This document shows, in pieces, positions 31,289 to 62,280 of a DNA stretch of 64,000 nucleotides; positions within the stretch are counted from its first letter, which is position 1; the number at the start of each line of letters is the position of its first letter. The DNA is taken from positions 3,785 through 67,784 of the IMG/VR virus record IMGVR_UViG_3300016469_000426, one strand, 5' to 3'. A program made the translations under genes and the position numbers. The notes beneath the pieces are model-generated. The model made no database searches. It saw nothing but the letters and a program-made list of their open reading frames with translations, and had not been told where the DNA came from. The stretch comes from a virus.

Positions 31289-31319
31289 AAAAGCATTTGC
31301 TCTGTACTTGATCTCTTCC

Positions 31320-31494: not shown

Positions 31495-31502
31495 CAACCC
31501 CC
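31495..31502 (+). promoter_or_regulatory. CAACCCCC motif copy 9
   Basis: upstream of paralog B; followed by TAATGTTTAACC. Confidence 0.45.
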
Positions 31503-31583
31503 TTTTCTCAGGACACATTGGCTCCATAGTCAGGATATGGAGATATGTGAGACATAATGTTTAACCCAAAAATCCAACTCAAG

Positions 31584-31970
31584 ATGAAAATCAAGTTGAT
31601 CCGCTCGTACAAGAGCAAAAACGGCAACACAGTGTTTGTGTATGCTGTAAGTGGAACCCAAGAGCAACTCGAGGCGTTCGCAAAAGCCCAAGGTGACAAT
31701 CACCGCGTGGATGAAGTAACCGGAACACCGTTGTGGTTCACAACTCGTTGCGTAGGTCAATCAGGAAACCTGATTATCACCACCAACGGTAAAGTTGTAC
31801 CTGACATGTCTGCGTTTGACCAGGCTGCAAGCTTGGCTGCACAGTACGGTGGTAACTTCGGTGACCAGTTGGCCCGTATGGCTGCTGAGCAATTGCTTGG
31901 CGGCGGTGCGAAGAGCACAGCTGTTGAAGCGAAGGCCGAACCGAAAGGTGAGGACATCAGTAAGCTGTAA
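31584..31970 (+). CDS. hypothetical protein, paralog B of duplicated pair
   Basis: MKIKLIRSYKSKNGNTVFVYAVSG...; alternative start 31557. Confidence 0.55.
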   Translation: MKIKLIRSYKSKNGNTVFVYAVSGTQEQLEAFAKAQGDNHRVDEVTGTPLWFTTRCVGQSGNLIITTNGKVVPDMSAFDQAASLAAQYGGNFGDQLARMAAEQLLGGGAKSTAVEAKAEPKGEDISKL

Positions 31971-31992
31971 AAGCGAGCTGATTTGCTTATAG

Positions 31993-32030
31993 GAGCTACC
32001 TTGAGAGATCTTGGTAGCTCTTTTTCTTTC
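31993..32030 (+). terminator. Rho-independent terminator
   Basis: gagctacc ttgagagatctt ggtagctc tttttctttc. Confidence 0.6.
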
Positions 32031-32047
32031 CCGACAAGGGTAAAACT

Positions 32048-32063
32048 CCGACAAAATTGTCGC
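32048..32063. promoter_or_regulatory. palindrome CCGACAAAATTGTCGC (operator candidate, copy 2)
   Basis: One-position variant of copy 1. Confidence 0.4.
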
Positions 32064-32154
32064 AAAATCGAGCACGCCAACTCGTAACTTATTGAAGATG
32101 AGAGAGAATGTGAGTGGGTATTAAACTCCCACTCCTTTCTCCACCTTCAAAACA

Positions 32155-32170
32155 CCGTCAAATTTGTCGC
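32155..32170. promoter_or_regulatory. palindrome CCGTCAAATTTGTCGC (operator candidate, copy 3)
   Basis: Half-site variant. Confidence 0.35.
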
Positions 32171-32224
32171 TAAGACAGACGACGACCTCGCACTATATAA
32201 CTATCACCACCTAATAACAAGCTT

Positions 32225-32470
32225 ATGGCTTTATCTGAAGACTCGATACGTTACCTATACTATCGTTATCAGGATCTTCTTAAAGATCTCAAGTATGAAA
32301 GAGACATTGCTCTAAAGCTAGGGGATAAAGAGCTATATGAAGTGCTAAGAGAGGCTATCGACCACGTTGAAGATTCTCAGAAGAAGGTTGATAACCATAT
32401 CCGCTTAACAAACGGCTCCAAAATCGTCCAACAGTTTAACAACTTACTGAAAGATGACTCGCTCAGCTGA
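32225..32470 (+). CDS. hypothetical protein
   Basis: 81 aa ORF. Confidence 0.45.
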   Translation: MALSEDSIRYLYYRYQDLLKDLKYERDIALKLGDKELYEVLREAIDHVEDSQKKVDNHIRLTNGSKIVQQFNNLLKDDSLS

Positions 32471-32681
32471 AGACGCTCTTGTAGAAGAGCATGAGAGATA
32501 CATGAAAGAAGTATCTGAGTCCGGCATGCCTTTGTGGATGCTGGATTACTACGCCAAGAGCAATGCTCAGTGGCAGGAAGAAGAACATCTCAAGAACCAA
32601 CTCAAAAACCCACACCATGAAGCCGACAAGGAAGATTCTCCGCCTCATGATGGAGGCGATGATCCCCATCTTTTTATATGA
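32454..32681 (+). CDS. hypothetical acidic protein (overlaps next ORF in another frame)
   Basis: 75 aa ORF. Confidence 0.3.
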   Translation: MTRSAEDALVEEHERYMKEVSESGMPLWMLDYYAKSNAQWQEEEHLKNQLKNPHHEADKEDSPPHDGGDDPHLFI

Positions 32682-32856
32682 GATAGGGGCAATAGGTTTC
32701 TGGTTACTAATATTTCCGTCGGGTACCCTGAGCGAAGTGCATTACCTTGCATGGAGACAGGATATACCCATTCTACTGGTCCTGTACAGTTGTCTGTACT
32801 TCACGGCCGGACTATGGTACCACTTTTATGCACATAGAGGTGAAGATGGAGATTAG
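32617..32856 (+). CDS. small membrane protein
   Basis: ATG after caccATG leader; IPIFLYEIGAIGFWLLIF and ILLVLYSCLYFTAGLW helices. Confidence 0.4.
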   Translation: MKPTRKILRLMMEAMIPIFLYEIGAIGFWLLIFPSGTLSEVHYLAWRQDIPILLVLYSCLYFTAGLWYHFYAHRGEDGD

Positions 32857-32952
32857 GTACACCAGCCAAAAAGTTTGTACAATCCTGGAAGATAATCCAG
32901 GGTTGCTAATGCATCATAATCCGGTTCCCAAGGCCGGACATCTGTAATATCC

Positions 32953-33348
32953 ATGAGCTCACCGATCAGCACTACATCGGAACACTCGCTTGATACCAAG
33001 CTATTACATATGAATGCAGAGGGGCAACCAATTAAACTAACGCGTATGAATGAGTATCTCGAACTGAGAAAAGAACTGAAAGATATCATCACTGGCCTAC
33101 TAGCCATGAAAGATCTTCAAGATCCCGACGGTGATCCTGCCGGTATACTTATTCAGAACTCAGCTACAGAGTACTGGTTACAGACCAGATACAATGCCTT
33201 TCTTAGGCTGGAAATATGTACTAAGTCCATGAACCAGTTCTTTACCAATGATGAGTTCCGACGACTCATACAAATGATAAGATCTGAGGACTCAGAGAAT
33301 GTTCATGTGGCTCGAGCCATACTGGATGAAAAGATTAAGACATTATAA
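32953..33348 (+). CDS. hypothetical protein with shared C-terminal module
   Basis: ...FRRLIQMIRSEDSENVHVARAILDE. Confidence 0.45.
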   Translation: MSSPISTTSEHSLDTKLLHMNAEGQPIKLTRMNEYLELRKELKDIITGLLAMKDLQDPDGDPAGILIQNSATEYWLQTRYNAFLRLEICTKSMNQFFTNDEFRRLIQMIRSEDSENVHVARAILDEKIKTL

Positions 33349-33546
33349 CATTGTTTCGCTAGGCAAGGCGAGACTGGTTGAAATACCTAATCTCCCAATC
33401 CGAATTCCATGAATGTAAAGAATCCTCTTGCACCTTCCTCTGGCGTTGCCGAGGGGTTGTCAGTCTCCAATGAGCTGGAGCAGTAATAGCGGGTGCAAGG
33501 CGCAGAACAGGATTGAGGATCAAAGCAGTCGCCAAATTGCTAAGAC

Positions 33547-33798
33547 ATGGAAAGCGAAACATCCCATTATAAACCAACTCAAACCCAACTCATTATGCAA
33601 GCTCAAGTTAAACTCTCAGATGCCTTATTCTCTACAGCAGAAGCCGTAGTAGCAATGGGCAAGAAGTCTGGTCTTGACATTAAGATCACCGACGTCTACA
33701 AAAAGGAAAACCTCGAAGGGTTAGCCATGATCTCAGGATTAATACGTCAGCTTGCAGAAAAAAGCAAAGGCGTCACGATTGAAGTACTTAATACTTAA
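33547..33798 (+). CDS. hypothetical protein
   Basis: 83 aa ORF. Confidence 0.4.
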   Translation: MESETSHYKPTQTQLIMQAQVKLSDALFSTAEAVVAMGKKSGLDIKITDVYKKENLEGLAMISGLIRQLAEKSKGVTIEVLNT

Positions 33799-33941
33799 AC
33801 TTGGGTAAAACACCCATGGATGATCTGCCTGAGTAAGATATCCGACTCACTAAAAGAGTCAAGACGTGAGGGTCGCACCCTTACCGGGCGCCTGGGCTAG
33901 GATCGGGGCGCCATTTTCTCTAACTATTAACTCAAATCATT

Positions 33942-34385
33942 ATGAAAAAGATACTCATACTTAGCTTAGCCATCATGGCTTTTACTGCTTGTAAGAAGGA
34001 GGAGAAGGCACCAACGCCTGCTCCTACACCTTCTACTACTACCTTGAATGCAACAGAGACTAGCTTAGCTGGCTCATGGGTGGTAACATATGAAGCACTG
34101 CTTGACACAGCAGGGAATATTATTCCGGGAAGTGTTATCACACGCACTGATACAACTAACTGCAGACTAGACCTGTTTACAACTCTGAATGCTACTGTAG
34201 GTAACAACTACAAGGATGGATATCAGGGATTGGCATGCATCTACGCAGTAACATACTGGAAAGCCACGCCCACTCATCTCGATTTATTCGGGACGCTTTA
34301 CTACATACGCACACTCACTTCCAGCATCCTCGAACTTACTTTTACAGCGGGTCCCAATACAGCAATCTTACACCTTGAGCGATGA
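33942..34385 (+). CDS. lipoprotein
   Basis: MKKILILSLAIMAFTAC signal peptide plus lipobox Cys. Confidence 0.6.
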   Translation: MKKILILSLAIMAFTACKKEEKAPTPAPTPSTTTLNATETSLAGSWVVTYEALLDTAGNIIPGSVITRTDTTNCRLDLFTTLNATVGNNYKDGYQGLACIYAVTYWKATPTHLDLFGTLYYIRTLTSSILELTFTAGPNTAILHLER

Positions 34386-34675
34386 AAAAGTTTTTAGCCC
34401 TATTGATCATATCACTATTCTTTATTTTGATGATGATGCTCATGAGTGGATGTGTAAACATGCCTCATAAAAGATACAAGATTGAATACTCTCCAGGTAA
34501 ACACAGCCGGTACATCTATACCAATTCTTACACTATCGATGAGAATGGATGCTTACATGTAAATGATGAAGGTTATATAGGTGGATGTGGATGTGGTGAA
34601 CCGGATATCATATGCGGTGACTTCACTATCACAGATAGAGGAGAACAAGGTGAATACAGCACAGTAGTTAATTAG
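34382..34675 (+). CDS. lipoprotein, Cys-rich mature part
   Basis: MKKFLALLIISLFFILMMMLMSGC lipobox; ATGA overlap with upstream gene. Confidence 0.55.
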   Translation: MKKFLALLIISLFFILMMMLMSGCVNMPHKRYKIEYSPGKHSRYIYTNSYTIDENGCLHVNDEGYIGGCGCGEPDIICGDFTITDRGEQGEYSTVVN

Positions 34676-35012
34676 TACTCGAGGATACGGCTCGCCTGCA
34701 GTAAGTCGCACGCGTAGTAAGTCGTAAAGCGAAGTCCGCCCTCGGGCAAACAATATTGCCGACCGGTCTAGGTTCGCCAGAAACAAGCCGTGACGTTGAG
34801 TATCCGGTATGCAACCTGGCTTGCCAGGATAACATCAGTGATCAGTGACTAGGTACGTGGAAACGGAAGGGTTCTCACCTGCAGGTAGACACGTCGGCAA
34901 CACCATTCCTGATTAAGCTTCATCGAGCACGTTTAATCAGAGGTCCGGTCTCAGCTACCTCCAAGAGATCGGACCACACTATTAAAGTTACACTCTCAAA
35001 ATAACCTAAGCC
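34676..35012 (+). ncRNA. ORF-free GC-richer structured region (candidate ncRNA)
   Basis: 337 nt without ORF, repeated gtaagtcg and cctgcag elements. Confidence 0.25.
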
Positions 35013-35315
35013 ATGAAAAAGAAAACCATTTTTGTAGTGTATACCAACGAAAAGGTAAACGCTAAAGAGGCAGGACGCTTAAAGCGATATGCCTTTAACA
35101 CGACAGCTCCAATCAAAGTAGGAGACATGTTGCAATCTCCAGAGTACTCAACCAAAATGCAGGTTGTAAACATACTGGACAGCGCTCATAAATATTTCAA
35201 CGGTTCCACCGGTGAATTGAGTGACAAGTTCAACTCAACAAGTCAGTGGGAGATTCGTGACTTCATTATCCGCGAGGACTCCGAGACCGCTGTCTACGGA
35301 AAAATCATTAAATAA
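35013..35315 (+). CDS. hypothetical protein
   Basis: 100 aa; preceded by aaaataacctaagccATG leader variant. Confidence 0.45.
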   Translation: MKKKTIFVVYTNEKVNAKEAGRLKRYAFNTTAPIKVGDMLQSPEYSTKMQVVNILDSAHKYFNGSTGELSDKFNSTSQWEIRDFIIREDSETAVYGKIIK

Positions 35316-35580
35316 TTGCCGGTGTTACCAGTGATGACGATCGCTGGATACGAAGTCTGTGAGAGCCCCGCTGGTGCATCGCAGTTAGCTGATCAGGCTA
35401 AAGCGGGATGACAGCCGGCAATACCCATTGGGGAGGAGGGGATGGGCAACCGCCCTCACTCATCACACTCCCTATAAGATTAAACCTGCTATAGATATAC
35501 TCCTGTAACACATGATGTCGTGATGCTCATGGGTAGAGGTATGTATAGCAGGTTTTCAATTAACCATTAAACCATTCACC
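35316..35580 (+). ncRNA. ORF-free structured region with long-range pairing (candidate ncRNA or ORF-less intron)
   Basis: ttgccgg...ccggcaa pairing enclosing ~95 nt; G-rich ggggaggaggggatggg. Confidence 0.25.
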
Positions 35581-35844
35581 GTGAAACTTATTGATAAACT
35601 CAAAAAACAGGTCAACGCCGCAGCAAAGGTAAAACCTGTAAAGAAAGGTGAGAAGCGATTGCTTTTCGTCTTCAAGGAAGAACATTACAAGAAAGAGATA
35701 TCTTCCGCCCAAGGATTCGGATCACAAGATCTTAAACCCAGCTATCTGGAACTGTACACCTACTTACTCGCTAAATACAAAGGAGCTCTTATCACCGAGG
35801 TAAGTAATCCGAGCAAGAAAGAAGTGAGTGTTTACATCAAGTAA
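35581..35844 (+). CDS. hypothetical basic protein (GTG start per ORF track)
   Basis: 87 aa ORF. Confidence 0.35.
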   Translation: MKLIDKLKKQVNAAAKVKPVKKGEKRLLFVFKEEHYKKEISSAQGFGSQDLKPSYLELYTYLLAKYKGALITEVSNPSKKEVSVYIK

Positions 35845-35871
35845 TAATTTTACCAACTCAACCCGCACTCT

Positions 35872-37287
35872 ATGGAAAACACAATGTTCAAACCTATACT
35901 TAAGACAGCGCCTGATCCAAAAAGAATGGAGCTGTTTGCCTGGATGTGCAAGAAAATTGAGAGCATGAGAAACCCTCTGCACAAGAGGACAGAGACCGAT
36001 GAAGTTATTACTTACACATACGGGACTATCGCCGATTCTAAATACGACGAGAAGATAAAGATGATAAAAGAAAATCATCCCAGCACAGTAGTAACTCCTC
36101 ATTATGAAATCGATCCGATAAGCCTCAGCCCAGAACCATCATGGCAATTCAAACGTGTTACCAAACACTTTTTGACAGTGCTATATGATAAGCACACTGG
36201 AAAGATATCTCTCTCAGACTTCGAAGTAGGTATGGCCTATAATCACAAGATTAAAAAGTATTACCCACTAAAGAAGAATCGTCCCATCTTTTGCTACAGC
36301 GATAAGCTTTACACATTCGTACACCCTTACAAAAAGAGTATGAAGGTTAAAGTAATGCCTGTAACTGGAGCTTTGATCAGCGAAAGTAGTGGAACGGATA
36401 AACTCACAAAGCTTTTTGCTGAAAAGTTATACGATCTGGACCGGTATGAAGAAGACATTACACTACCAATCACACTCAAATACTACGAGGGAACCACTAA
36501 TGAATACGAAGTAATAGAAAAACGTATGGGAATCAAGATACCTAAACGTCTCCGTGCTGCGTATCAACCTTATGCCCTCTATCAAGTTCTTCGCGTACTT
36601 CGTAATAAGAACGAGATAACAACGCTCAACATGTGGGTTGTCCAATCTAAAAATTCTTCTGTTGGAGGATTATTCCAAGGTGATTCCGGATGGTATGACA
36701 GGGGTGAAGCTATCTATAGACTGATGGCTTTACATATGCTCAACGATCCATCATCTTCATGGTTAATTCGAGACTGGGTAAAAGATCACATCAAACTTGG
36801 CAAAAAGCTAAGTCTTACTGTAAGATCTAAAATCCGGATCGAGGATGAGCACCAGAAGATGAGCAGGGAAATTTCTCGCAAAGAACTTAGTCCAATCAAG
36901 GTAGCAAAGAACTACCTGAAGATGTACAAAGCGTGGCCAATCCCTAACTCGGAGTTAATAACTACAAGAGAAAGACTCCGTGAAGAATCTGATATACAAC
37001 AACACTGTGTAGCCACATACGGTAACCAGATTAACTCGGGATCATGCGCAATCATTTCTATCTTATACAACGAGAAGAGATACACTCTTCAAGTTGCACG
37101 CGTTACCGTAGGTAAAAATCTTTATGACTACAGAAACGCTCAATTAAGAGGATATAGAAACGAGGATGCACCACAAGAACTACACGACCTTATTGATAAA
37201 TTCTTCTTGTCCATACGTCATCCTTATAATAAGATGATTGCTCCTGTACAGAAGAACCAAGATCAGTATGAGGATCTACCATTCTAA
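35872..37287 (+). CDS. PcfJ-like domain protein
   Basis: 471 aa; C-terminal ...ELITTRERLREESDIQQHCVATYGNQINSGSCAII resembles PcfJ core. Confidence 0.4.
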   Translation: MENTMFKPILKTAPDPKRMELFAWMCKKIESMRNPLHKRTETDEVITYTYGTIADSKYDEKIKMIKENHPSTVVTPHYEIDPISLSPEPSWQFKRVTKHFLTVLYDKHTGKISLSDFEVGMAYNHKIKKYYPLKKNRPIFCYSDKLYTFVHPYKKSMKVKVMPVTGALISESSGTDKLTKLFAEKLYDLDRYEEDITLPITLKYYEGTTNEYEVIEKRMGIKIPKRLRAAYQPYALYQVLRVLRNKNEITTLNMWVVQSKNSSVGGLFQGDSGWYDRGEAIYRLMALHMLNDPSSSWLIRDWVKDHIKLGKKLSLTVRSKIRIEDEHQKMSREISRKELSPIKVAKNYLKMYKAWPIPNSELITTRERLREESDIQQHCVATYGNQINSGSCAIISILYNEKRYTLQVARVTVGKNLYDYRNAQLRGYRNEDAPQELHDLIDKFFLSIRHPYNKMIAPVQKNQDQYEDLPF

Positions 37288-38237: not shown

Positions 38238-38837
38238 TTGAAAATTAACAAAAAGGTGTATCTTTGCGGCATGACTTCAGCCGTATACATCATCAGAAAT
38301 ACTGTAAACAGCAAGATTTATGTCGGAAGTTCTCAAGATCTAAAAGGAAGATGGAAAACCCATCTTGATAAACTTCGTATAGGTAGGCATCACAACAAGA
38401 GACTTCAACACCATTACAATAAATACGGAGAACAATCTCTCATCATGGAAATTCTGGAAGAGGTATCGCACAATCTCTTAATACTTAGGGAACAGTACTG
38501 GATGGACAAACTGCAACCTTGGTTTAATCTTTGTCCTATAGCTGGAAGCTCCAAAGGAAGGGTATGTACTCAAGAACATAGAGCAAACTTATCTAAGGCT
38601 CACATTGGCAAAAAACATTCCGTAGAAGCCAGATCAAAAATGTCCGCTTCTCATAAAGGTACCAAGAAACCTTGGGCAAGAGGTAAAGGCAAATTAACTA
38701 TAGGACAGGTGCTGAAAATAAGAGATGAGCTCAGTATCAAATCTTGTGCTCAACTCGCAAAAGAATATGGAGTGAAGAGTTCAGCTATTAGCAAAATCAA
38801 ACAGGGTAGAACCTGGAACACCCTTTCTTTGTCCTGA
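38238..38837 (+). CDS. GIY-YIG homing endonuclease (I-TevI-like, with NUMOD3 repeats and C-terminal HTH)
   Basis: VYIIRNTVNSKIYVGSSQDLKGRWKTH (GIY-x10-YIG...R...H); three KGK/GK...S.E.R.K.S repeats; ...KSCAQLAKEYGVKSSAISKI. Confidence 0.8.
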   Translation: MKINKKVYLCGMTSAVYIIRNTVNSKIYVGSSQDLKGRWKTHLDKLRIGRHHNKRLQHHYNKYGEQSLIMEILEEVSHNLLILREQYWMDKLQPWFNLCPIAGSSKGRVCTQEHRANLSKAHIGKKHSVEARSKMSASHKGTKKPWARGKGKLTIGQVLKIRDELSIKSCAQLAKEYGVKSSAISKIKQGRTWNTLSLS

Positions 38838-39436
38838 TGATGTCAGGGGTGTATAAATATCAGACGAAACACTATGTGTCGGCAATGCACGAAGTTTAGC
38901 CGCCTAGACGCCATTCGAGCGAAGGCTGCCGGATACCTGGATCCGTGACAAAACCACAAGGTGGTCGAGTCTAAACCAGGAGAAATTGCTGGGAGCAAAA
39001 GTCGGGTGAGATTGTAAATCATCTCACTCGGCACTCTCAGCTTCTCATTAAAGGCTGCATACCGCACTTTAAAACAACGATCTGTTAAATCGAAAAGACG
39101 CAGCCTGCTCCTCTTAAGGACTCCGAACAGCACCTACAAACCACTTGCCTTTTAAGCAAACCCGGTGGAGTCCGCCCCTTTTTAAGGGATGCTTGCAGCA
39201 CTAAAAACCCATTTGAAACATGGCTTAGTGGCATCCTGCACCTATTGACTATAATGGATACATCAGCACTCTGAAACTATAAATCAGAGAGCCCGAAAGG
39301 GCAAACCTGGGAGAACCCTTTGCTCAATTAGCTAAGGTGGGTACCGTATCCTGTTATGTAGTCAACCCCACCGCCCGTGAAAAGGTGGTGGGTTCTCCCT
39401 CAATCCTCAAGTAACAACCATTAAATCTAAGCCGTA
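38838..39436 (+). ncRNA. 600-nt ORF-poor, highly structured region downstream of GIY-YIG gene
   Basis: GNRA hairpin gcccGAAAgggc, GGGAGAACCC...GGGTTCTCCC long-range repeat, GGACTCC...GGAGTCC. Confidence 0.3.
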
Positions 39437-40546
39437 ATGAGCAGACTTGTTAATGCAGCACGTAGCTATGACGCTACAACAAATAAAGGAGCAGTTACTC
39501 ACTCTACCTCCTTGAACTTCTGTCTCGATATGTTCTTCCTTGCAGGAGCATCTCGCAATATGGACGAGAAGTCTATGATCACCATCTTTGAAAGAGCTTA
39601 TGCTCAAGATCCAAACATTGCGGCCAAGATTTTATTCTGGTCTCGTGATGCTCGTGGTGGTGCAGGTGAGCGCCGATTCTTTCATACAATTATGCGACAT
39701 ATTCTGGATAAATATCCTGAGGTTGCAGACAAACTAATGGTACATGTACCAGAGTTTGGGTATTGGAAGGATGTGTTCGCAATAGAGAAACCGAACGAGA
39801 ACAACCTTAACTGGTTGAAACATTCTCTTGAGGAATCTCCTAATGCGAATCTCTTGGCCAAATGGTTCCCGCGCAAAGGTCCATGGTTTGTAGCCATGCA
39901 TCGTTATCTTGGTATGACGCCTAAAGAATTTCGCAAGAAACTCGTGGCAATGACTAAGGTAGTAGAAACGCAGATGTGTAACCAAGAATGGAAAGGTATC
40001 AAGTACGAAGCAGTACCTTCTATCGCGATGAATAAATACCGCAAGGCATTTTTCAAACACGATGAAGAACGTATGAAAGCATACGTTGAGGCCGTACATT
40101 CAGGTGAAGCTAAGATTAACGCATCAGTACTATTCCCTCATCAATTGTATCAAGCAATTAATAAAGGGGAGAATGAGCGTGCAGTCGAAGCACAGTGGAA
40201 TAACCTACCAGATTATATGGAAGGATCAACAGAACGCATCACTCCGGTGTGTGATGTATCTGGAAGTATGATGGGATTACCTATGGACGTAAGTGTAGCG
40301 CTGGGGATTTATATCTCTGAGCGTAACAAAGGTATCTTCAAAGATGCCTTCTTGACTTTCTCTGAAAGACCTGAGATGCAATACCTGAAAGGGTCACTTG
40401 CTCAAAGAATGCGTCAGCTGAATCAAGCTCCATGGGGTGGTACCACAAATCTGCAGTCGACCTTTGACTTAATCCTCAACAGTGCAATCAGAGAGAAAAT
40501 CTCTGAGGATGAAATGCCAACCAAGATCTTAATCATCTCGGATTAA
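39437..40546 (+). CDS. vWA-domain protein, 5' exon (frame stops at TAA 40544-40546 at intron start)
   Basis: MIDAS motif DVSGSM; ends ...KILIISD; preceded by taaatctaagccgtaATG. Confidence 0.65.
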   Translation: MSRLVNAARSYDATTNKGAVTHSTSLNFCLDMFFLAGASRNMDEKSMITIFERAYAQDPNIAAKILFWSRDARGGAGERRFFHTIMRHILDKYPEVADKLMVHVPEFGYWKDVFAIEKPNENNLNWLKHSLEESPNANLLAKWFPRKGPWFVAMHRYLGMTPKEFRKKLVAMTKVVETQMCNQEWKGIKYEAVPSIAMNKYRKAFFKHDEERMKAYVEAVHSGEAKINASVLFPHQLYQAINKGENERAVEAQWNNLPDYMEGSTERITPVCDVSGSMMGLPMDVSVALGIYISERNKGIFKDAFLTFSERPEMQYLKGSLAQRMRQLNQAPWGGTTNLQSTFDLILNSAIREKISEDEMPTKILIISD

Positions 40547-41504
40547 TCTTAGTCCCTCTCAGTAGAAATACTGATGAGAAAACGCTTTAAATTGCGGGAA
40601 ACTCTTTAGAACTCTAATTACCAACTCATCACAGTAATGTAGATGAGGGTGTTACTAATCATAACAGTATGGTAAAAACATTAGAGATTAGACAATCCGC
40701 AGCCAAACTTGTAAAATTATTTGTGTACGTGGAATTTAAACTGTATATTTGTTGTATGAAAACAAGACAATATACACTAGATGAAGACTTCTTCTCTGTC
40801 ATAGACAGTGAAGAAAAGGCTTATTGGTTAGGCTTTATATTTGCAGATGGTTCAGTAACTGTCCGGAGTGCTGGACAAGCCGTACTGCAAATAAAATGTC
40901 ATATTAAAGACGCAGCTCATCTAAATAAATTCCACAAGGATATTGGTACAAACAAGCCTATTAAATATTATAGTCAGAAAACAGTCTACTCAAATAGTAA
41001 GTATGCTCAATCAGCTTTAATATCTAATACACTTGTACAAGATTTAATCTCAAAAGGATGTGTTCCCAGAAAGAGTTTGATTCTCAAATGGCCTAACAAT
41101 CTTACAGAAGAATTAGCTCCTCATTTTATGAGAGGTTATTTTGACGGAGACGGCTCAATATGTGAAACAACTCAGAAAACCAAGCATGGTATCTGGAAAC
41201 ACCCTGCAATCAGTATTTGCGGAACAAAAGAGTTCCTTACCGAGTTTGCTAAAAGATTGAATATTGAAAAGTGTATCTATCCTGAGTACAGAAAAAAAGA
41301 CAAAAATTGTTGGTCTCTCAAGCTCAGCTCAAAAAAAAGATGTAAATCTTTCTTTGACTTGCTTTATAAAGATCAACATGTATGTCTATCTAGAAAACTT
41401 GAAAAGTTTTTAGAATTACAAGGAGGTTCAACGACTACAATAAGCGCACCTACACAGGTGATGGTATAGTCTGATCTTACATGAGAATGTAAGCTAACAT
41501 AATG
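40544..41504 (+). mobile_element. group-I-like intron interrupting vWA gene, carrying LAGLIDADG endonuclease
   Basis: Exon 1 ends on U (40543), downstream in-frame continuation MEFDSACSY... begins after G 41504; boundaries inferred from protein continuity. Confidence 0.5.
40669..41469 (+). CDS. LAGLIDADG homing endonuclease (double-motif)
   Basis: AYWLGFIFADGSV and MRGYFDGDGSI motifs. Confidence 0.8.
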   Translation: MVKTLEIRQSAAKLVKLFVYVEFKLYICCMKTRQYTLDEDFFSVIDSEEKAYWLGFIFADGSVTVRSAGQAVLQIKCHIKDAAHLNKFHKDIGTNKPIKYYSQKTVYSNSKYAQSALISNTLVQDLISKGCVPRKSLILKWPNNLTEELAPHFMRGYFDGDGSICETTQKTKHGIWKHPAISICGTKEFLTEFAKRLNIEKCIYPEYRKKDKNCWSLKLSSKKRCKSFFDLLYKDQHVCLSRKLEKFLELQGGSTTTISAPTQVMV

Positions 41505-41795
41505 ATGGAGTTTGATTCAGCTTGTAGTTATCGTAGATCAGGAACAAACCTAGATATCATCCGCGAAAAGTACCAGCAAGCTGGTTACAAGATGCCGGAG
41601 ATTATCTTCTGGAATGTAAATGGTCGTATCGGCAATTCTCCTGCACAGAAGAGTGATAAGGGAATCGGTCTTGTATCAGGATTCAGCCCGTCTATCTTGA
41701 AGTCAGTATTGAAAGGTGAGATCTACTCTCCTGAACAACTGATGATGGATACAGTGAATGTTGATCGATACAGACTCATCCAGGTAACTGAATAA
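41505..41795 (+). CDS. vWA-domain protein, 3' exon
   Basis: In frame with exon 1 after removing 40544..41504; exact 3' splice site within +/-3 nt. Confidence 0.5.
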   Translation: MEFDSACSYRRSGTNLDIIREKYQQAGYKMPEIIFWNVNGRIGNSPAQKSDKGIGLVSGFSPSILKSVLKGEIYSPEQLMMDTVNVDRYRLIQVTE

Positions 41796-41844
41796 GATCG
41801 GAGTATTATCCCGCTTGGCAACAGAAGGGATATCATGATATTGC

Positions 41845-41882
41845 GAGAGAGCTGTGACTTCACCACAGCTCTCTTGTTTTTC
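41845..41882 (+). terminator. Rho-independent terminator after vWA gene
   Basis: gagagagctgtg acttcacc acagctctct tgttttt. Confidence 0.55.
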
Positions 41883-41958
41883 ATCTTTGAGTAAAGAGGA
41901 ACAACTCAAAGCTCTGAAGGAAAGCTCGTTCCTCGAAAAACCATCTAAAAATCTAAGC

Positions 41959-42732
41959 ATGAAAATTGAACAAGTGCGAAAGCACCCAGCGCACGCGCTG
42001 CTTGCTGCAACTATCGGTGAAAAAGCAGCCGATGAAGCCATCATCAAAATGATGGAGGAAGAAATCAAGAAGAACCAAGCAGAGACTGAGTTCTCTACCG
42101 GAACTAAACGTATCATTCTTCCAGCCACAATGAATAAGTTGCAGGCAGCAAAAGAATTGAAGCGTCAGTGGGATGACGAAGAACAGGTAATTAATGTGGA
42201 CAGAATGTTCGGTGAATGGAACTGGAGAGATGTCCTTGTTGCAGTAAAGAAAGCTGCAGAACGTCACTTTGGTTGGATCCAAGGTAAGACTGTACATACC
42301 TTCTTCGGTACTCAGCGCCCTACAGACATTGAGATTGTCGTTGATATCAAAGACGGCAAGAAAATTACTGAGACCTGTTTCTACGGACAGTTCACCGCAA
42401 CTGTTTGGGAAGATGCAGTGGTCGAAGTAGGACCGAGCCACATCAGCGCAACTGTGAAGAAGCGCTATGCTCATGAAGCAAAAGAATTTTTCGACCTGAT
42501 CCAGAAAATCCTGGACACTGAGTCGATCTACCGTGGACGTGCAATCACTGTTACAAAGCAGACTTCACCATGGGGTGAGATCTCTTTGGATTTCGATATC
42601 TTCGAGATGAAGGTATCCGACAAGATTGTATTGAACGAAGACGTGGACACTGTTGTTCGCAACTTCATCATTGACGATCTTGGTGAAGATGGCAAGCGTT
42701 GCTATCTTTTCTCAGGTGGTTATGGAAATGGT
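41959..42732 (+). CDS. AAA+ ATPase, 5' exon (ends GGYGNG, first half of Walker A)
   Basis: Start after ctaaaaatctaagcATG; ...DGKRCYLFSGGYGNG then ORF frame runs into intron (stop 42751). Confidence 0.65.
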
Positions 42733-43756
42733 AGAATCAGAAATTTTGCGTAACTTTGTCACATGACAAAGTATGAACAAGGTGAAGAGTTATACAGACA
42801 AGGTATGTTCTTAAAAGACATTGCTCTGGAGCTAAAAATATCAGCTCATAGACTATCTGTATATCTCAGGAAAAGAGGTGTTCCGAAGAACCCTCATCAT
42901 TACAAGGCAACTGTAAAGTCTACTCTTAGAACCGACATCTTCAAAGATATCGATACTAAGGAGAAAGCCTATTGGCTCGGTTTTATCTTTGCTGACGGGT
43001 ATGTTTCAGAAAGAAACGTTTTTGAAGTGGCGCTATCCATTAAGGATATCTCTCACTTAGAAAAGCTAAAGCTCTTTCTAGGGATAAGCAATCCTATAAA
43101 GATTACAGACACAAGTTGTAGATTATATGTAACTGACAAGACTTTTGTTGCACACCTTAATAAGCACGGTGTTGTACCAAGGAAATCTCTTATCCTCAAG
43201 TATCCATCAATTGATCGAGCCTTTGACAAAGCTTTCATGATGGGCTATTTTGATGGAGACGGATGTCTTACATATAATCGTGTTAGAAAAAGACTTCAGC
43301 TCAGTCTAATAGGAACACCAGAGTTCCTAGAAGCATATAAGAAGAGACTTTCTACTACAGCAAAGCTGACTCTTTATCAGGATAAAAGACATAAGCCACA
43401 AACAAGATATATCTCCGCAGCTGGAAAACACGCTGTAGAAATCTATCAGCAACTTGTAGATGATTCCCCTATACACCTTGAGAGAAAACGCAAAGTATTC
43501 TCTGCCGCGCTAGGTAGTAATACTTAGTGTTATTAACGGGTAAAAACGGTGAAGGCTGAAATGCTAATACCGTGCTAAGACTTCTGATTACGAAAGGCAG
43601 AAGTACAGTGTAACGCATAGTCGGTGAATAAATATAATCCGACCAAGAGTATCCGTCACCCAAACAGTAAAGCTGTGGGTGAAAATGTATGCTGAGCTCA
43701 CACGAAAGACAAGTGTGAGAATCACAGGATAAAAAGCCTGTGAGATAACAAAACTG
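42733..43756 (+). mobile_element. group-I-like intron in AAA+ ATPase gene, carrying LAGLIDADG endonuclease
   Basis: 5' exon ends on U (ggT|aga), intron ends on G 43756; 244-nt structured tail after HEG ORF; splicing fuses GGYGNG|KT. Confidence 0.65.
42763..43527 (+). CDS. LAGLIDADG homing endonuclease with N-terminal HTH
   Basis: AYWLGFIFADGYV and MMGYFDGDGCL motifs. Confidence 0.8.
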   Translation: MTKYEQGEELYRQGMFLKDIALELKISAHRLSVYLRKRGVPKNPHHYKATVKSTLRTDIFKDIDTKEKAYWLGFIFADGYVSERNVFEVALSIKDISHLEKLKLFLGISNPIKITDTSCRLYVTDKTFVAHLNKHGVVPRKSLILKYPSIDRAFDKAFMMGYFDGDGCLTYNRVRKRLQLSLIGTPEFLEAYKKRLSTTAKLTLYQDKRHKPQTRYISAAGKHAVEIYQQLVDDSPIHLERKRKVFSAALGSNT

Positions 43757-44422
43757 AAAACAGAAACAGCTATGCGTATCGGTTCAGCCGGCCTTACAAA
43801 AGGTATGGCGTACTTCTACTGCAAAGATGCCGATGTATTCCACATGCTTCTTGGCCAAGCTAAGAACTACCAGCCGTGCATCGTGTTCCTTGAGGACGTG
43901 GATGAAATCGGTGCAGGTACCAAGCGTGATGCCGACATGAATAAGATCCTGAATACTCTGGATGGTGTACAGACTAAGGGTAACAACCTTACTGTAATCT
44001 TTACAACCAACCATGAGAAGCGTATCAACCCGGCTCTCCGTCGCCCAGGTCGTATTGACCTTGTGGTGAACTTTGAGAATCCGGACAAAGTTGCCGTTGC
44101 AGAAATCTATCATCGTTATCTGGCTCCATTGGATACAGAAAAGTTGTTGGATTACAACGTGCTTGCTGATCGCACTCCGGACTGTCCTGGTGCAGTTGTT
44201 GCTGAAATTGCTAAGCGTGCAGTTAAACTCTGCAAGAAGCGTGGCGCAGTAAATGATGACCTGGTAAAAGCAGCAGTTGATTCCATGAAGCATCATTTGA
44301 AACTGATGAAAGAAGAAGTGGAAGAACCACGTACTGGTGACATGACCATCACGGTTAAGAATGCCAGCATGAACGTTTCTGAAGCAGCTTCTAAGAATGG
44401 AGCGGCTGTCAAAGCCAATTAA
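43757..44422 (+). CDS. AAA+ ATPase, 3' exon
   Basis: Begins KTETAMRIG...; Walker B CIVFLEDVDE, sensor-1 TTN, Arg finger ALRRPGRID. Confidence 0.65.
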   Translation, partial: KTETAMRIGSAGLTKGMAYFYCKDADVFHMLLGQAKNYQPCIVFLEDVDEIGAGTKRDADMNKILNTLDGVQTKGNNLTVIFTTNHEKRINPALRRPGRIDLVVNFENPDKVAVAEIYHRYLAPLDTEKLLDYNVLADRTPDCPGAVVAEIAKRAVKLCKKRGAVNDDLVKAAVDSMKHHLKLMKEEVEEPRTGDMTITVKNASMNVSEAASKNGAAVKAN

Positions 44423-52045: not shown

Positions 52046-53143
52046 ATGGAAACAAGAGACCAAATCAAAACTCGTGTACAAGGTGAAGCTCTTGCTAAAG
52101 TGCTACCTCTACGAAGAGCCGGTGTATATTTATCGATGGGTGTTGGAAAAACCTTACTTGGTATTAAGCACATGGCTGAAAATTACACAGACTACTCCAA
52201 GTTTTTGATTGTTGCACCGAAGATCTCTATACACGATGAGTGGATAGAACAGGCTAAACAATACGGCTATGAGTATCTTATACCACATATGCACTTTACC
52301 ACATATCTATCTCTCCCAAAGCAGGATTTGGATTACGATGTAGTATACCTAGATGAATGTCACTCATTGCTCTTTTCACATGAGGAATGGTTGCGCGAAC
52401 ATCCAGGTAAAATACTCGGATTAACCGGAACACCGCCAAGGTATGAGAGATCAGAGAAAGGTAAAATGGTATCGCAGTTCTGTCCGATTGTCTATGAGTA
52501 TGAAATGGAAGATGCAGTGGGTGATAAGGTATTGAACGACTACAAGATTATTATCCATATGCTCTCACTGGATCCTAATAAGACTATGCGTGTAGAGCGT
52601 AAAGGAAAGGTATGGTATACGTCTGAACTTGCAACTTATCAGTACTGGAGTCAAAGACTTGATGCAGCTGCTCACAAAAAAGAACAGCAGATCATGAGTG
52701 TGATGAGGATGAAGTCTATGATGGATTTTCCAAGTAAGGAGGTACTAGCAGCAAAAATTGCCTCTCAAATAACGGACAAGCACATAATCTTTGCTAATAC
52801 GCAGGATCAAGCAGACAGATTGTGTTCTCACAGTTACCATAGTGGTAACCCTGATTCAGAGGATAACCTCATCCTGTTTAAGAAGGGAGAAATAAATCGA
52901 CTCTCAGCTGTACTACAGTTGAATGAAGGTGTAAACATCCCTAACCTTAGAGAGGGTATAATCCTGCATGCTTATGGAAACGAGCGAAAAGCTTCTCAGA
53001 GAATCGGAAGATTGCTGAGATTAAATCCGGATGATGTCGCAACAATCCATATCCTATGCTATCGAGACACTGTTGATGAAAGGTGGGTCAAATCCGCTCT
53101 TGAAGACAGAGATCCTAGCAAAATTTCTTACCAGCAATGGTAA
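52046..53143 (+). CDS. SF2 (DExH-box) helicase
   Basis: Walker A LSMGVGKT, motif II DECH, motif III LTGTP, motif VI QRIGRLLR. Confidence 0.6.
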   Translation: METRDQIKTRVQGEALAKVLPLRRAGVYLSMGVGKTLLGIKHMAENYTDYSKFLIVAPKISIHDEWIEQAKQYGYEYLIPHMHFTTYLSLPKQDLDYDVVYLDECHSLLFSHEEWLREHPGKILGLTGTPPRYERSEKGKMVSQFCPIVYEYEMEDAVGDKVLNDYKIIIHMLSLDPNKTMRVERKGKVWYTSELATYQYWSQRLDAAAHKKEQQIMSVMRMKSMMDFPSKEVLAAKIASQITDKHIIFANTQDQADRLCSHSYHSGNPDSEDNLILFKKGEINRLSAVLQLNEGVNIPNLREGIILHAYGNERKASQRIGRLLRLNPDDVATIHILCYRDTVDERWVKSALEDRDPSKISYQQW

Positions 53144-53144
53144 A

Positions 53145-53315
53145 GCTACCGTGGCGGAATTGGCAGACGCTCCACTTTGAAGCGCGGCATGTGCTTCCCG
53201 GCACCTAATAATGCTCAGCTGAGTGGTACGTAGGGATAAAGACTCTACTCCTTGAGGGTAGGACCTTGATCAGGTGACGACGGTCATGCAGGTTCGACTC
53301 CTGCCGGTAGTACCA
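53145..53315 (+). ncRNA. tRNA-like element with encoded CCA and ~95-nt internal insertion (intron-containing tRNA or tRNA-like RNA)
   Basis: 5' GCTACCG + D-arm GCGGAATTGGCAGACGC at 53145-53170; 3' GCAGG TTCGACT CCTGC CGGTAGT A CCA at 53288-53315; acceptor halves complementary. Confidence 0.35.
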
Positions 53316-53336
53316 ACTTCTAAAAAAATCATCTCT

Positions 53337-53708
53337 ATGTCAAACAGAAGAAAGCCAGCTGGGGCTAAAAAGCCAGCAAAATCAGCCGTTGTAAAAAAGG
53401 CAGATCTCGGGGATAACCCTTTCGAGATTGAATCGGGTGTTGTATTAACTGCTAATCGTTCTTCATCAAGCTTACACATTCAGCAGTTACTTGAACGAGT
53501 AAGAGAACTTCCTGTAAGCAAAGAAGTCTCGATTCTTATTCCCAAGAGTATTGCAGAGAAAGCTTCAGATGCTTCGAATCTTGTATTAGGTGTAAGGCGA
53601 CTTATTGCTGAAGATGCAAGTTTTCCCAAGAACTTTACGATAACTCTGAAAACCTTTAAGGATAATCAGGGTAACTATCTGAATGCTCGCATATGGAGGA
53701 TTCACTAA
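53337..53708 (+). CDS. hypothetical protein with basic N-terminus
   Basis: Start at internal ATG after tRNA-like element. Confidence 0.4.
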   Translation: MSNRRKPAGAKKPAKSAVVKKADLGDNPFEIESGVVLTANRSSSSLHIQQLLERVRELPVSKEVSILIPKSIAEKASDASNLVLGVRRLIAEDASFPKNFTITLKTFKDNQGNYLNARIWRIH

Positions 53709-57012: not shown

Positions 57013-57080
57013 GGAGGACGTAGCTCAGTTGGTAGAGCAACGGTTGCCGTGGGTCGTAGGTTCGAGTCCTACCATCCTCC
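57013..57080 (+). pseudogene. tRNA-like sequence with truncated anticodon arm (tRNA pseudogene or tRNA-derived element)
   Basis: GAGGACG TA GCTCAGTTGGTAGAGC (canonical D-arm) then ACGG-TTG-CCGT mini-hairpin, T-arm GTAGG TTCGAGT CCTAC, acceptor CATCCTC; ~68 nt. Confidence 0.4.
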
Positions 57081-61427: not shown

Positions 61428-62280
61428 TTGCACAGATCAACAAAAAGCTATACCTTCGTCAACAAAACTGTTGTGTATGGTATATGAGAGAATAGCTCCA
61501 ATGAGAAACTATGACAAGACAACTGATACGCGTAAGTGTAAGAAGTGTAATGAGTGGAAACCTCTATCAGAGTTTAGTAGTAGAGTAAGGATCGCAAGCC
61601 CTACTACCAAAGACCTTGTTAAGAAGGTACCTACATTATACTATAGAAGTGAGTGTAAAAGTTGTTCACTTCTATCAATACGTAAACCTGAATACTGTGG
61701 ACCTGATGCTCGTAGGAAACAACATGCATTAGATCCTCGTAAAGTGATGCTTGTTCATGCTCGAATCAGAGCTAAGAAGAAGGGTCTAGTATTTGGTATT
61801 ACTTACGATGATATCATAGTTCCTAAAGTCTGTCCATTACTTCAGATACCTATCCAAGTATCTAAGGGAAAAATAGGACCTGGTAGTCCTAGTATAGATC
61901 GCTTAGACCCTACAAAAGGTTATGTGAAGGGAAATGTCATGGTTATCTCTCATAAAGCAAATACTGCAAAGAATACACTAACTCTTGCAGAGCTTGAATT
62001 GTTGGTCCGTAACTTAAAACGGGTCCTGAATAAAGAGGAAGAATTGCTGGAAAGCTAATGAAATATGGGGCTCGGCATGGTAACCAGTCCATAGTCTAAG
62101 GAGGGAAGTACTCCTGTGGGCTCCACCATATTTTTATGCCAATCAGCAGCCGAGCCCAAGGGGAGACTTGGGAAGGTTCAGAGACTAGGGACACTACGGT
62201 GAGCCCAGAGCATCCTCCACTCAATAGAGTGATGATATAGTCCGATCCTCGTGGAAACATGAGACAAATGGATATAGCCG
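61425..62280 (+). mobile_element. group-I-like intron in ung carrying HNH endonuclease
   Basis: 5' exon ends on U 61424, intron ends on G 62280; 222-nt structured tail after HEG. Confidence 0.6.
61471..62058 (+). CDS. HNH homing endonuclease
   Basis: SIDRLDPTKGYVKGNVMVISHKANTAKN HNH core; N-terminal CKKC...C zinc motif. Confidence 0.7.
   Translation: MCMVYERIAPMRNYDKTTDTRKCKKCNEWKPLSEFSSRVRIASPTTKDLVKKVPTLYYRSECKSCSLLSIRKPEYCGPDARRKQHALDPRKVMLVHARIRAKKKGLVFGITYDDIIVPKVCPLLQIPIQVSKGKIGPGSPSIDRLDPTKGYVKGNVMVISHKANTAKNTLTLAELELLVRNLKRVLNKEEELLES

Follow-up and report, generated by a model that had tools for sequence, protein, structure and literature searches.

The window analysed here is the whole 64,000-nucleotide (nt) stretch of the IMG/VR virus record IMGVR_UViG_3300016469_000426, and the coordinates of the element described below are window positions on the plus strand. 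At 53145-53312 the window encodes a structured RNA of about 168 nt (the element), with an encoded CCA directly behind it (53313-53315). The element follows a gene for an XPB/Rad25-like superfamily 2 (SF2) helicase (52046-53143, plus strand, 365 amino acids), whose stop codon ends 1 nt before it and which is part of the context rather than of the RNA; the ATG of the next open reading frame (ORF) is at 53337, 21 nt past the element end. No consensus for a sigma-70-type promoter or an intrinsic terminator was found adjoining the element. Divided by its predicted helices and loops, the 5' half of 53145-53315 reads GCUACCG-UG-GCGG-AAUUGGCAGA-CGC-U-CCAC-UUU-GA-AGC-GC-GGC-AUG-UGCU-UCCC-GGCA-CCUAAUAAU-GCU-CA-GCU-GA-GUGG, and the 3' half continues after this GUGG with UACGUA-GGGA-(39 nt)-GAC-GACG-GUC-AU-GCAGG-UUCGACU-CCUGC-CGGUAGU-A-CCA. 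Comparison with relatives argues strongly that this is a pseudoknotted RNA under selection, derived from a tRNA-Leu but devoid of an anticodon, and we regard this part of the interpretation as very probable.

An earlier, sequence-only reading of the locus had proposed a tRNA-like RNA, and the motifs on which it relied are all in place: the acceptor strands, the D-arm, CCACT (53172-53176), AGTGG (53222-53226), the T-arm, the discriminator base and the CCA. In a local search the Rfam tRNA model (RF00005) matches 53145-53312 with 32.0 bits, against a gathering score of 29 (E = 9.7e-05), and the tRNA helices covary among relatives, in agreement with that proposal; a whole-window Rfam run with default filters misses the element. 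The 5' strand of the acceptor stem, GCUACCG (53145-53151), pairs with CGGUAGU (53305-53311) through G1.U72 and six Watson-Crick pairs, and the discriminator A follows at 53312. All seven acceptor pairs are formed in 100% of the family, with compensatory double changes in five of them, so the co-variation on which the sequence-only reading had made its proposal depend is present. U8 and G9 lead into a Leu-type D-arm (53154-53170, within a segment that spans 53152-53171 and ends with position 26), which has a D-stem at 53154-53156/53168-53170 (covarying in 2/3 pairs), a G13.A22 juxtaposition, A14, A15 and G18G19. The T-arm (53288-53304) combines the stem GCAGG/CCUGC (53288-53292/53300-53304; 4/5 pairs covary) with the loop UUCGACU. 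Taken together, the helices of the acceptor, D-arm and T-arm have 100% of their pairs formed in every copy, with compensatory changes in 11 of 15.

The conservation extends to the tertiary core. Invariant in the family are U8, G9, A14, A15, G18, G19 and A21, as well as G53, T54, C56, A58 and C61 in the T-arm, where G53:C61 is the last stem pair; position 55 is nearly invariant and position 59 varies. The base before the T-stem (U48) is U in every copy and faces the invariant A15, and an A15-U48 Levitt pair is typical of tRNA-Leu in the E. coli literature. Of the features that define a tRNA, the element thus has the acceptor, D and T helices with U8, A14, G18G19, T54-Psi55-C56 and A58, but it has no 5-base-pair (bp) anticodon stem with a 7-nt loop carrying U33, an anticodon and a purine at position 37; instead, its anticodon stem closes 45-52 nt.

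A relative whose helicase is 55% identical (L050; the handles with L denote the relatives compared here) carries an ordinary 85-nt tRNA-Leu(UAA), called by ARAGORN, in exactly the same slot after the helicase gene, and the D-arm of the element in another relative, L002, equals the D-arm of this tRNA at 19/19 bases. The D-arm region matches phage tRNA-Leu genes in BLAST searches, and the next-best matches of the family covariance model are Leu tRNAs. Because of this D-arm identity, the shared slot, the conserved tertiary core and the Leu-type next-best matches, we read the element as a descendant of a tRNA-Leu gene that is predicted to retain the L-shaped fold. With type II tRNA-Leu it shares the 7-bp acceptor, U8, the 3-bp D-stem with G13.A22, A14, A15, G18G19, A15-U48 and a UUCGA T-loop, and it also has a hairpin right before the T-stem, at the position of the long variable arm. 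It differs from type II tRNA-Leu in that a 7-nt anticodon loop is missing and the stem runs via a kink-turn into a 45-nt extension, in a 61-nt variable region tied by two pseudoknots, in a discriminator that is not fixed at A, and in not being called by ARAGORN.

As the sequence-only reading had noted, 117 nt separate the D-arm from the T-stem. Rather than the single insertion of about 95 nt that it had supposed, these hold two expansions. The anticodon "loop" has grown from 7 to 45 nt, and the variable region measures 61 nt (53227-53287; 58 inserted nt by the Rfam alignment) versus about 15 nt in tRNA-Leu. Correspondingly, 41 nt in the anticodon loop and 58 nt in the variable region have to be treated as insertions in the alignment to RF00005. 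The suggestion that CCACT and AGTGG form a stem around an inserted segment was correct, as CCAC (53172-53175) pairs with GUGG (53223-53226) and the stem covaries (CCAC/GUGG, CUAC/GUAG, UCAC/GUGA, CUGU/GCAG and CCGU/GCGG by lineage, with double changes in 3/4 pairs).

This anticodon stem is at the same time the canonical (C) helix of a predicted kink-turn. It is followed by a UUU bulge and a GA (53176-53180) that can form G.A/A.G pairs with the GA at 53221-53222, and then by the non-canonical (NC) helix, in which 3/3 pairs covary (AGC/GCU, AAC/GUU, GGU/ACC, UGU/ACA and AGU/ACU by lineage). A kink-turn has been defined as a 3-nt bulge with tandem G.A/A.G pairs between a C and an NC helix (PMC5061560). 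The window and 8/11 variants satisfy this published definition (PMC5061560), with a 3-nt bulge and a GA facing a GA directly before the stem, between two covarying helices; the third base of the bulge is an invariant U in the nine full-length variants of the alignment. The 3b.3n pair is Watson-Crick in 7/8 of the canonical kink-turns and G.A in L221, and no member has G at 3n or C at 3b. According to the rule of McPhee et al., kink-turns with such a 3b.3n stay unfolded in metal ions alone and need a protein or a tertiary contact (PMC4382518). As the 3b.3n pair is Watson-Crick, this rule predicts that the kink forms only when it is held by pseudoknot 1, described below, or by a protein.

The 5' side of the extension (53181-53188) comprises the NC strand AGC, a 2-nt internal loop (GC) and the strand GGC of a second helix, GGC/GCU, that never varies. 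Between this helix and the terminal hairpin lies a 3-nt junction. The terminal hairpin itself (53191-53204) has the stem GUGCU/GGCAC, whose 5 bp were returned by RNAalifold unaided, and the loop UCCC (53196-53199); its outer pair is G:C, A:U or U:A, and UGCU/GGCA becomes UACU/GGUA in L217 and L226. Behind the hairpin is a single-stranded junction (53205-53212) with the sequence UAAU at 53206-53209 (T64, A65, A66 and T67), which is invariant in all variants; no pairing partner for 53205-53212 was found. The return strands (53213-53226) are GCU, the internal loop CA, the 3' strand of the NC helix (GCU), the GA at 53221-53222 and the 3' strand of the C helix (GUGG), each paired with its 5' counterpart. 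The three bases after U33 differ by lineage (GAA, GAG, GAU, UAA or GGA), a 7-nt anticodon loop is absent, and removing any single segment restores none. The element therefore looks like a tRNA, yet is almost certainly unable to read codons.

Two predicted pseudoknots connect the extension with the variable region. In pseudoknot 1, the hairpin loop UCCC (53196-53199) pairs with GGGA (53233-53236), which is followed by an A-rich run (UAAAGA, 53237-53242) present in all variants. In general terms an NCCC loop pairs with GGGN', located six bases past the anticodon stem, where N:N' is U:A in the window, A:U in L217, G:C in L222 and L002, and C:G in L226. The GGG has two invariant positions; at the third, L227 alone has A, and there the partner has changed from C to U (UCC:GGA, a compensatory change), and in L226 the pseudoknot is CCUC:GGGG, with a wobble. 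In pseudoknot 2, the linker just before GGGN' (CGU, 53229-53231) pairs with ACG (53280-53282) in the loop of the last hairpin before the T-stem. This pairing is CGU:ACG in the window, L217 and L227, CGUA:UACG in L221, CUGUA:UGCAG in L226 and GCUGU:ACAGC in L222 and L002. The last hairpin, GAC-GACG-GUC, with the following A and U48, occupies 53276-53287, and its stem covaries in 3/3 pairs (GAC/GUC, AAC/GUU, GAG/CUC, GCG/CGC, AUC/GAU and, in L275, GGAG/CUUC). L275 lies outside all models; its last hairpin is GGAG-UACGG-CUUC, with a loop perfectly complementary over 5 bp to the linker CCGUA, and this copy, kept out of model building, confirms the predicted pseudoknot 2.

Between the two pseudoknotted segments lie lineage-variable hairpins (53244-53275), which were read by eye: UCUAC/GUAGG (53244-53248/53258-53262) and ACCU/AGGU (53263-53266/53272-53275) in the window, UCUGUC-UUCG-GACAGG and ACCUU/AAGGU at the same sites in L217. 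The strand 5'-CGUAGGGA-3' (53229-53236) is thus clamped by two hairpin loops, one from the anticodon-arm extension and one from the variable arm. As both pseudoknots bind this one strand, the anticodon and variable arms would be fused into a compact knob. The kink-turn sits where the extension could bend back toward the tRNA core, so that the lower end of the L can be pictured as such a knob. In L275, a hairpin loop at 2033-2047 (GGGAUCCC) carries a further copy of the pseudoknot-1 partner, GGGA, inserted beside UCCC. This extra GGGA could compete with the long-range pseudoknot 1, which makes it a weak point of the model, and it may hint at a switch.

The pairing scheme was examined in several ways. 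RNAalifold, run on an unfitted MAFFT alignment, returned the same nested helices unaided, with compensatory changes in 19/30 pairs. In a count over the alignment, 96.3% of the pairs were formed; sliding the partners by 1-3 columns gave 30-45%, and 0/500 shuffles did equally well. With both pseudoknots included, 96.9% of the pairs were formed, double changes occurred in 24/42 pairs, and again 0/500 shuffles did as well. L275, which was fetched later and is in no model, scores 99.8 bits with the family model R1; this is the fairer test, because the curated alignment was built with the structure known.

The helicase upstream of the element contains the Pfam domains ResIII and Helicase_C and matches XPBII and Rad25/XPB in the PDB (best 2.4e-11). 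Its nearest phage kin in GenBank, at about 31% identity, belong to Flavobacterium FpV4-type phages and Bacteroides crAss-like phages, and hundreds of relatives from the environment, 100-130 kb in size, are present in IMG/VR. A functional link to an RNA helicase was considered and rejected, as the adjacent XPB/Rad25-like protein is a DNA translocase. Among the 80 best IMG/VR helicase loci, the element is found only in L001 (helicase 98% identical) and L002 (71%); the other loci mostly have no gap after the helicase, the genes overlapping or abutting, or a terminator-like hairpin (L011, L003). Exact and degenerate DNA-pattern scans of IMG/VR recovered only the window clade and L002, all other matches being due to chance or to ordinary tRNA-Leu genes. 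The pattern scans provided the near-identical copies L083 and L201, and one of the near-identical copies was supplied by JGI metagenomes. A helicase protein search, followed to the contigs of 65-81% identical homologues, added L217, L221, L222, L223, L233, L226, L227, L228 and L275, with the element of L228 being cut by the contig end. In GenBank phages no megablast match was obtained, and the "distant" mode gave only short generic tRNA similarities; no Rfam family besides tRNA matches the element, and the family was not found in DNA-pattern scans of 185,579 GTDB species genomes. The carriers are a small group of environmental crAss-like phages.

Between diverged lineages the element is 63-92% identical, and it is kept at the same site across a helicase divergence down to 67% amino-acid identity, starting -1 to +8 nt from the helicase stop codon in 11/11 variants. 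The gene downstream varies and encodes an unknown protein of 118-123 amino acids, ClpS, a deacetylase-like protein or others. ClpS, the N-degron adaptor of ClpAP, is encoded after the helicase in most of L003-L080 (54 loci by tblastn), with or without the element. A link between ClpS, Leu-tRNA and the N-end rule, for which ClpS directly after the element in four lineages might have spoken, was rejected, since ClpS occurs independently of the element and the window has no ClpS.

Close relatives reveal the strength of the constraint. Between the window and L001 the element has 0/167 mismatches, with the helicase gene 93.3% and the next 400 nt 84.7% identical; compared to L201 there is 1/168 mismatch, located in a hairpin loop, with the helicase gene 90.4% and the next 400 nt 80.4% identical. 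These comparisons indicate that the element is a functional RNA under very strong purifying selection, which includes the lineage-specific hairpins. One could suppose instead a functionless tRNA pseudogene that is decaying and has picked up random insertions, as ARAGORN misses the element and shuffling the sequence does not worsen its folding energy. A decaying gene would fit neither the 0-1 changes per 168 nt, where the flanks differ by 7-20%, nor the compensatory changes in every helix, nor the retention at the same site down to 67% helicase identity. Because of the near-absence of changes and the covariation we consider the element functional, and on the same comparative grounds the pseudogene explanation appears effectively refuted.

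The CCA, in contrast, is not part of what is conserved. The sequence-only reading was right that it is encoded in this window, but in the relatives the triplet after the discriminator is CTA, AGT, CAC, CAA or AAT, and even the near-identical copies (L001, L083 and L201) have CTA. Since the relatives lack it, the encoded CCA is incidental to this window.

The sequence-only reading had also raised the possibility of a tRNA with an intron, and such a tRNA-Leu, in which the extra sequence is spliced out to give a decoding tRNA, would not be out of place in a phage in which mobile elements abound. The window holds a group I intron at 61973-62264 (plus strand), two LAGLIDADG genes and one GIY-YIG gene, and other viral contigs have tRNA-Leu genes with long inserts in the anticodon loop (L209). 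Nevertheless, a covariance search of 52900-53600 at E <= 10 with Rfam, as the sequence-only reading had suggested for Intron_gpI and tmRNA (transfer-messenger RNA), reported neither family and gave tRNA as the best match, whereas the same tool detects the intron at 61973-62264. The anticodon insert of 38-45 nt is much too short for a group I intron, and the additional sequence sits at two separate sites. Whichever part is cut out, a 7-nt loop with U33, an anticodon and a purine 37 does not result, and the triplet after U33 varies by lineage. In addition, the two inserts pair together in pseudoknot 1, which fits a mature structure better than spacers, and a conserved, covarying insert resembles no known bacterial tRNA intron type. 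To our knowledge, the splicing endonuclease of archaea and eukaryotes does not occur in bacteria. The comparison with group I-interrupted tRNA-Leu(UAA) leads to the same conclusion: both have extra sequence in the anticodon loop and a genome with group I introns, but the insert there is >140 nt as opposed to 38-45 nt, and the element has no Intron_gpI match, a second expansion in the variable region and no anticodon loop that could be regenerated. An intron is therefore very unlikely.

Some of the mobile elements are observations in their own right. The group I intron at 61973-62264 scores 73.9 bits in Rfam (E = 6.9e-17) and overlaps the end of the ORF 61471-62058. Homing endonucleases are dense at 38238-44419 (plus strand), where a GIY-YIG/NUMOD3 gene (38238-38834) is followed by a LAGLIDADG gene (40669-41466) that splits a DUF2828/DUF7788 gene (39437-40543 and 41502-41792; "RNA-binding protein" in PHROGs), and the other LAGLIDADG gene (42763-43524) lies between the two parts of a split AAA-ATPase gene (41854-42750 and 43772-44419). 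L209, an unrelated viral contig, has at 1325-1541 (plus strand) a tRNA-Leu-like gene with an insert of about 130 nt after the anticodon stem, probably a small group I intron; with 30.1 bits it falls outside the family of the element.

A second proposal of the sequence-only reading, a miniature tmRNA, could build on a short frame in the anticodon-arm extension. This frame, (E/D)-x-(R/W)-x-(V/L/I)-L-P-G-x followed by the invariant UAA, would serve as a tag template on a chargeable body. In 11/11 variants it has 10 codons without a stop between the anticodon stem and the UAA, it encodes similar peptides (FEARHVLPGT, NETRQILPGI, VEVRLLLPGN and others), and the third position of its Leu codon varies. 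Moreover, leucyl-tRNA synthetase (LeuRS) ignores the anticodon, so that a Leu-type body could still be charged. Against this, ARAGORN does not call a tmRNA, and Rfam has no match but tRNA at E <= 10 (one lower-scoring overlapping match of the tRNA clan, family unidentified, was suppressed). The G3.U70 pair is missing, pair 3:70 being U:A in every full-length variant, and the D-arm and anticodon stem are intact, unlike in the SmpB-docking tRNA-like domain of tmRNA. The variable third positions are bases that covary in pseudoknot 1 and in the hairpin stem; as the "synonymous" position covaries with its pseudoknot partner, RNA pairing already explains the pattern of the frame. L226 and L275 have a +1/-1 pair of indels that puts 3-4 codons out of frame, 10 stop-free codons are not unusual by chance (about 0.6), and the frame lies within helices and the kink-turn. 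What the element shares with tmRNA is a tRNA-like acceptor/T-arm joined to a pseudoknotted RNA, the inability to decode and a readable short frame that ends in UAA; tmRNA, in contrast, lacks a D-stem and an anticodon stem, has G3.U70 for alanyl-tRNA synthetase (AlaRS), measures at least about 230 nt and has its frame between pseudoknots, none of which applies to the element. A tmRNA is, if anything, still less probable than an intron. Protein coding across the whole element was likewise rejected, as no coding frame is common to all variants: all six frames are stopped, except for one minus-strand frame of L226. Look-alikes of hammerhead, twister and box C/D RNAs were dropped by eye, since their core positions misfit and there is no Rfam match. 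Bacteria, as far as we know, have no box C/D proteins.

The constant position behind the helicase gene could also suggest a role in cis. Here the element would punctuate the transcript, with RNase P and RNase Z cuts that define where the helicase mRNA ends and the following mRNA begins, or the uncut fold would protect the 3' end of the helicase mRNA, and no role in trans would be needed. Consistent with this, the element starts -1 to +8 nt from the helicase stop in every lineage, no promoter or terminator is nearby, and other relatives have at this place a plain tRNA-Leu (L050), a terminator-like hairpin (L011, L003) or nothing at all. In L221, L222 and L002 the first base of the element is even the G of the UAG stop codon. 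However, a plain tRNA would suffice for punctuation, which leaves about 85 extra nt, the kink-turn, two pseudoknots and the invariant bases unexplained, as well as the 0-1 changes per 168 nt while the flanks differ by 7-20%; most relatives, furthermore, do without an element, their genes overlapping or abutting. We think punctuation as the sole role unlikely. The related idea of the sequence-only reading, a processing signal after the helicase gene, may hold as a side effect, given that the element abuts or overlaps the stop in every lineage, but it does not account for the elaborate insert.

At 4096-4098 in L221, 4048-4050 in L222 and 4096-4098 in L002, the last G of the helicase UAG is element base +1, and an RNase P cut would leave a helicase mRNA ending in ...UA, without a stop, which may be likened to the stop-less mRNA ends left by tRNA punctuation in mitochondria. 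An acceptor helix extended to 10 bp is possible in L002 and L222 (CUAGUUAUUG/CAAUAACUAG). L002 also has an odd Leu-type tRNA-like sequence at 6903-7011 (plus strand), 2.8 kb downstream of its element (39.7 bits with Rfam tRNA, 52.6 with model R1), in which a 6-bp stem, UUACCC/GGGUAA, closes a 22-nt loop rather than a 7-nt anticodon loop.

Should the knob carry the function, the tRNA body may be a mere carrier for processing and stability, and the knob a protein site, a small-molecule aptamer or the core of a ribozyme. The invariant GGC/GCU, the UAAU, the third bulge U and the CCC/GGG (changed only in L227, in a compensatory manner, and in L226, to a wobble) speak for this, as such invariance beyond the needs of pairing is typical of binding pockets and active sites, and so does the purifying selection over the whole element, lineage-specific hairpins included. 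There is also a resemblance to the SAM-I (S-adenosylmethionine) riboswitch aptamer, a four-way junction in which a kink-turn lets the terminal loop of the kinked arm reach and pseudoknot with a junction strand (PMC4316175, PMC4382518). The element has no sequence or model similarity to SAM-I, though, and the SAM-I kink-turns mostly have G at 3n and fold in Mg2+ alone, as opposed to the mostly Watson-Crick 3b.3n found here. No riboswitch or ribozyme of Rfam matches at E <= 10, and an expression platform, as in SAM-I, is missing; the downstream gene varies by lineage, which makes regulation in cis unlikely. Importantly, the Leu-type D-arm and tertiary core are conserved at least as strongly as the knob. 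In the tRNA-microRNA units of murine gammaherpesvirus 68 (MHV68), in the MALAT1 mascRNA and in engineered tRNA scaffolds, RNase P and RNase Z act on the tRNA fold, which also stabilizes the attached RNA. The cargo in those cases lies outside the tRNA or replaces the anticodon loop, whereas that of the element is woven into both arms by pseudoknots. We consider a mere carrier possible but rather doubtful, although less so than punctuation alone.

The interpretation we lean towards, by a little more than an even balance, is that of a tRNA-Leu-derived, non-decoding tRNA mimic that is matured by tRNA enzymes and acts as a decoy or adaptor in trans. As there is no promoter or terminator nearby, the element would be co-transcribed with the operon of replication genes. 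Host RNase P would cut its 5' end and RNase Z its 3' end, and the CCA-adding enzyme would supply the CCA, because the acceptor/T-arm and the elbow that these enzymes recognise are conserved; we infer that maturation into a discrete RNA is fairly probable. The mature RNA would persist as a stable L shape, whose acceptor and elbow could be gripped by tRNA-binding proteins and with which the ribosome could not decode. In trans, it might be a decoy or adaptor in tRNA shape, aimed at a factor, of the host or of the phage, by which tRNAs with a long variable arm (type II) are recognised, the knob providing a specific contact or a blocking surface. A mimic in trans is favoured because the full Leu-type core has been kept, beyond what processing alone needs, and because the rebuilt arms are those attacked by host tRNA-targeting defences: these attack anticodon loops (PMC10264068), and Septu cuts the variable loop of tRNA-Tyr (PMC13096335). 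Taken by itself, the decoy or adaptor role is a tentative suggestion.

A more specific version sees the element as a counter-measure or hijacking RNA of the phage, matured, possibly leucylated and excluded from the ribosome by the knot. It would trap a factor for type II tRNAs (e.g. a variable-loop immune nuclease) or donate its amino acid outside translation, the kink-turn acting as a conditional hinge that would close only with pseudoknot 1 or a protein partner in place. We regard this elaboration as unlikely, to about the same degree as punctuation.

Several points weigh against a matured mimic that acts in trans, or against parts of its structure. The alignment behind the 96.9% count is an N-padded register that was curated with the structure known, and MAFFT returned it unchanged. 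The folding energy of single sequences is no better than that of shuffled ones (z = -0.69, +0.13); the minimum free energy (MFE) fold mispairs the variable region, with GUAGGG/CUCUAC where comparison supports UCUAC/GUAGG. The family is small, with 11 variants from one phage subclade, so that the covariation counts represent few independent events. Three variants deviate from the GA/GA consensus of the kink-turn (L226 with AA...UA, L227 with a 5x4 internal loop, and L275), making the motif common but not obligatory, and in L223 and L233 pseudoknot 2 is doubtful, the sole option being CCG:CGG to an unstructured tail. The discriminator base differs between lineages (A, G or U), which makes a conserved single aminoacylation identity doubtful. 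No partner of the L7Ae, aminoacyl-tRNA synthetase, CCA-adding, RNA-ligase or Aat type was found with Pfam and PHROGs among about 65 window ORFs, the remaining minus-strand ORFs, taken as structural, being left out. Finally, every step beyond the fold itself is inferred.

Non-decoding tRNA mimics have precedents. YrlA, which Chen et al. reportedly described in 2014, is said to be a Y RNA that mimics tRNA for Ro60/Rsr with a D/T elbow and an acceptor-like stem, does not decode, and also occurs in phages. It ends at the anticodon-side stem and its acceptor is closed. The element is likewise a tRNA mimic, and the window phage encodes a DUF2828/DUF7788 protein ("RNA-binding protein" in PHROGs); in contrast to YrlA, the ends of the element are at the acceptor, with a discriminator, like those of a real tRNA. 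The Rfam Y RNA models do not match the element at E <= 10, and 12-14 kb separate the element from the DUF2828 gene, whose relation to Ro60 is putative.

The phage has many ordinary tRNA genes besides. ARAGORN finds an array of 23 tRNAs at 24934-27421, on the strand opposite to the element, and does not call the element itself. As this array already includes Leu(UAA) and Leu(UAG), a copy such as the element would be dispensable for decoding. One array member, at 26318-26406 (minus strand), is an 89-nt tRNA-Gln(ctg) according to ARAGORN and a 73-nt tRNA at 26319-26391 according to Rfam; its anticodon loop is UUUGCAA, i.e. UGC (Ala), an identity otherwise absent from the array, and two of its acceptor pairs are mismatched. 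At 57014-57080 (plus strand; Rfam tRNA 54.1 bits, missed by ARAGORN) there is, besides the element, a second tRNA-like gene that is non-decoding, with normal acceptor (one C.A mismatch), D and T arms and an "anticodon arm" ACGG-UUG-CCGU, in which a 4-bp stem closes a 3-nt loop that cannot hold an anticodon; no copies of it were found in IMG/VR with a degenerate pattern. In a region of 7.6 kb (28296-35872) the window has no ORF of at least 150 amino acids and many short plus-strand ORFs, which seem likely to be small early genes.

tRNA mimics as such are known (tmRNA, YrlA and viral tRNA-like structures), and what appears to be new here is the architecture. Our literature searches found no description of a full tRNA body with acceptor ends whose arms are fused by a kink-turn and two pseudoknots. 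For RNA biology, the element offers a compact natural combination of a kink-turn and two pseudoknots in a tRNA frame, and its size of about 170 nt suits direct structure determination. As ARAGORN and Rfam with default filters skip such genes, viral metagenomes may hide more of them. The tRNA genes of phages are usually explained by codon supply or by the replacement of tRNAs destroyed by host defences. The element would represent a third outcome, in which a phage tRNA gene has been rebuilt as a strongly selected, non-decoding RNA with a tertiary architecture of its own, and it suggests that tRNA mimicry has a so far overlooked function in environmental crAss-like phages.

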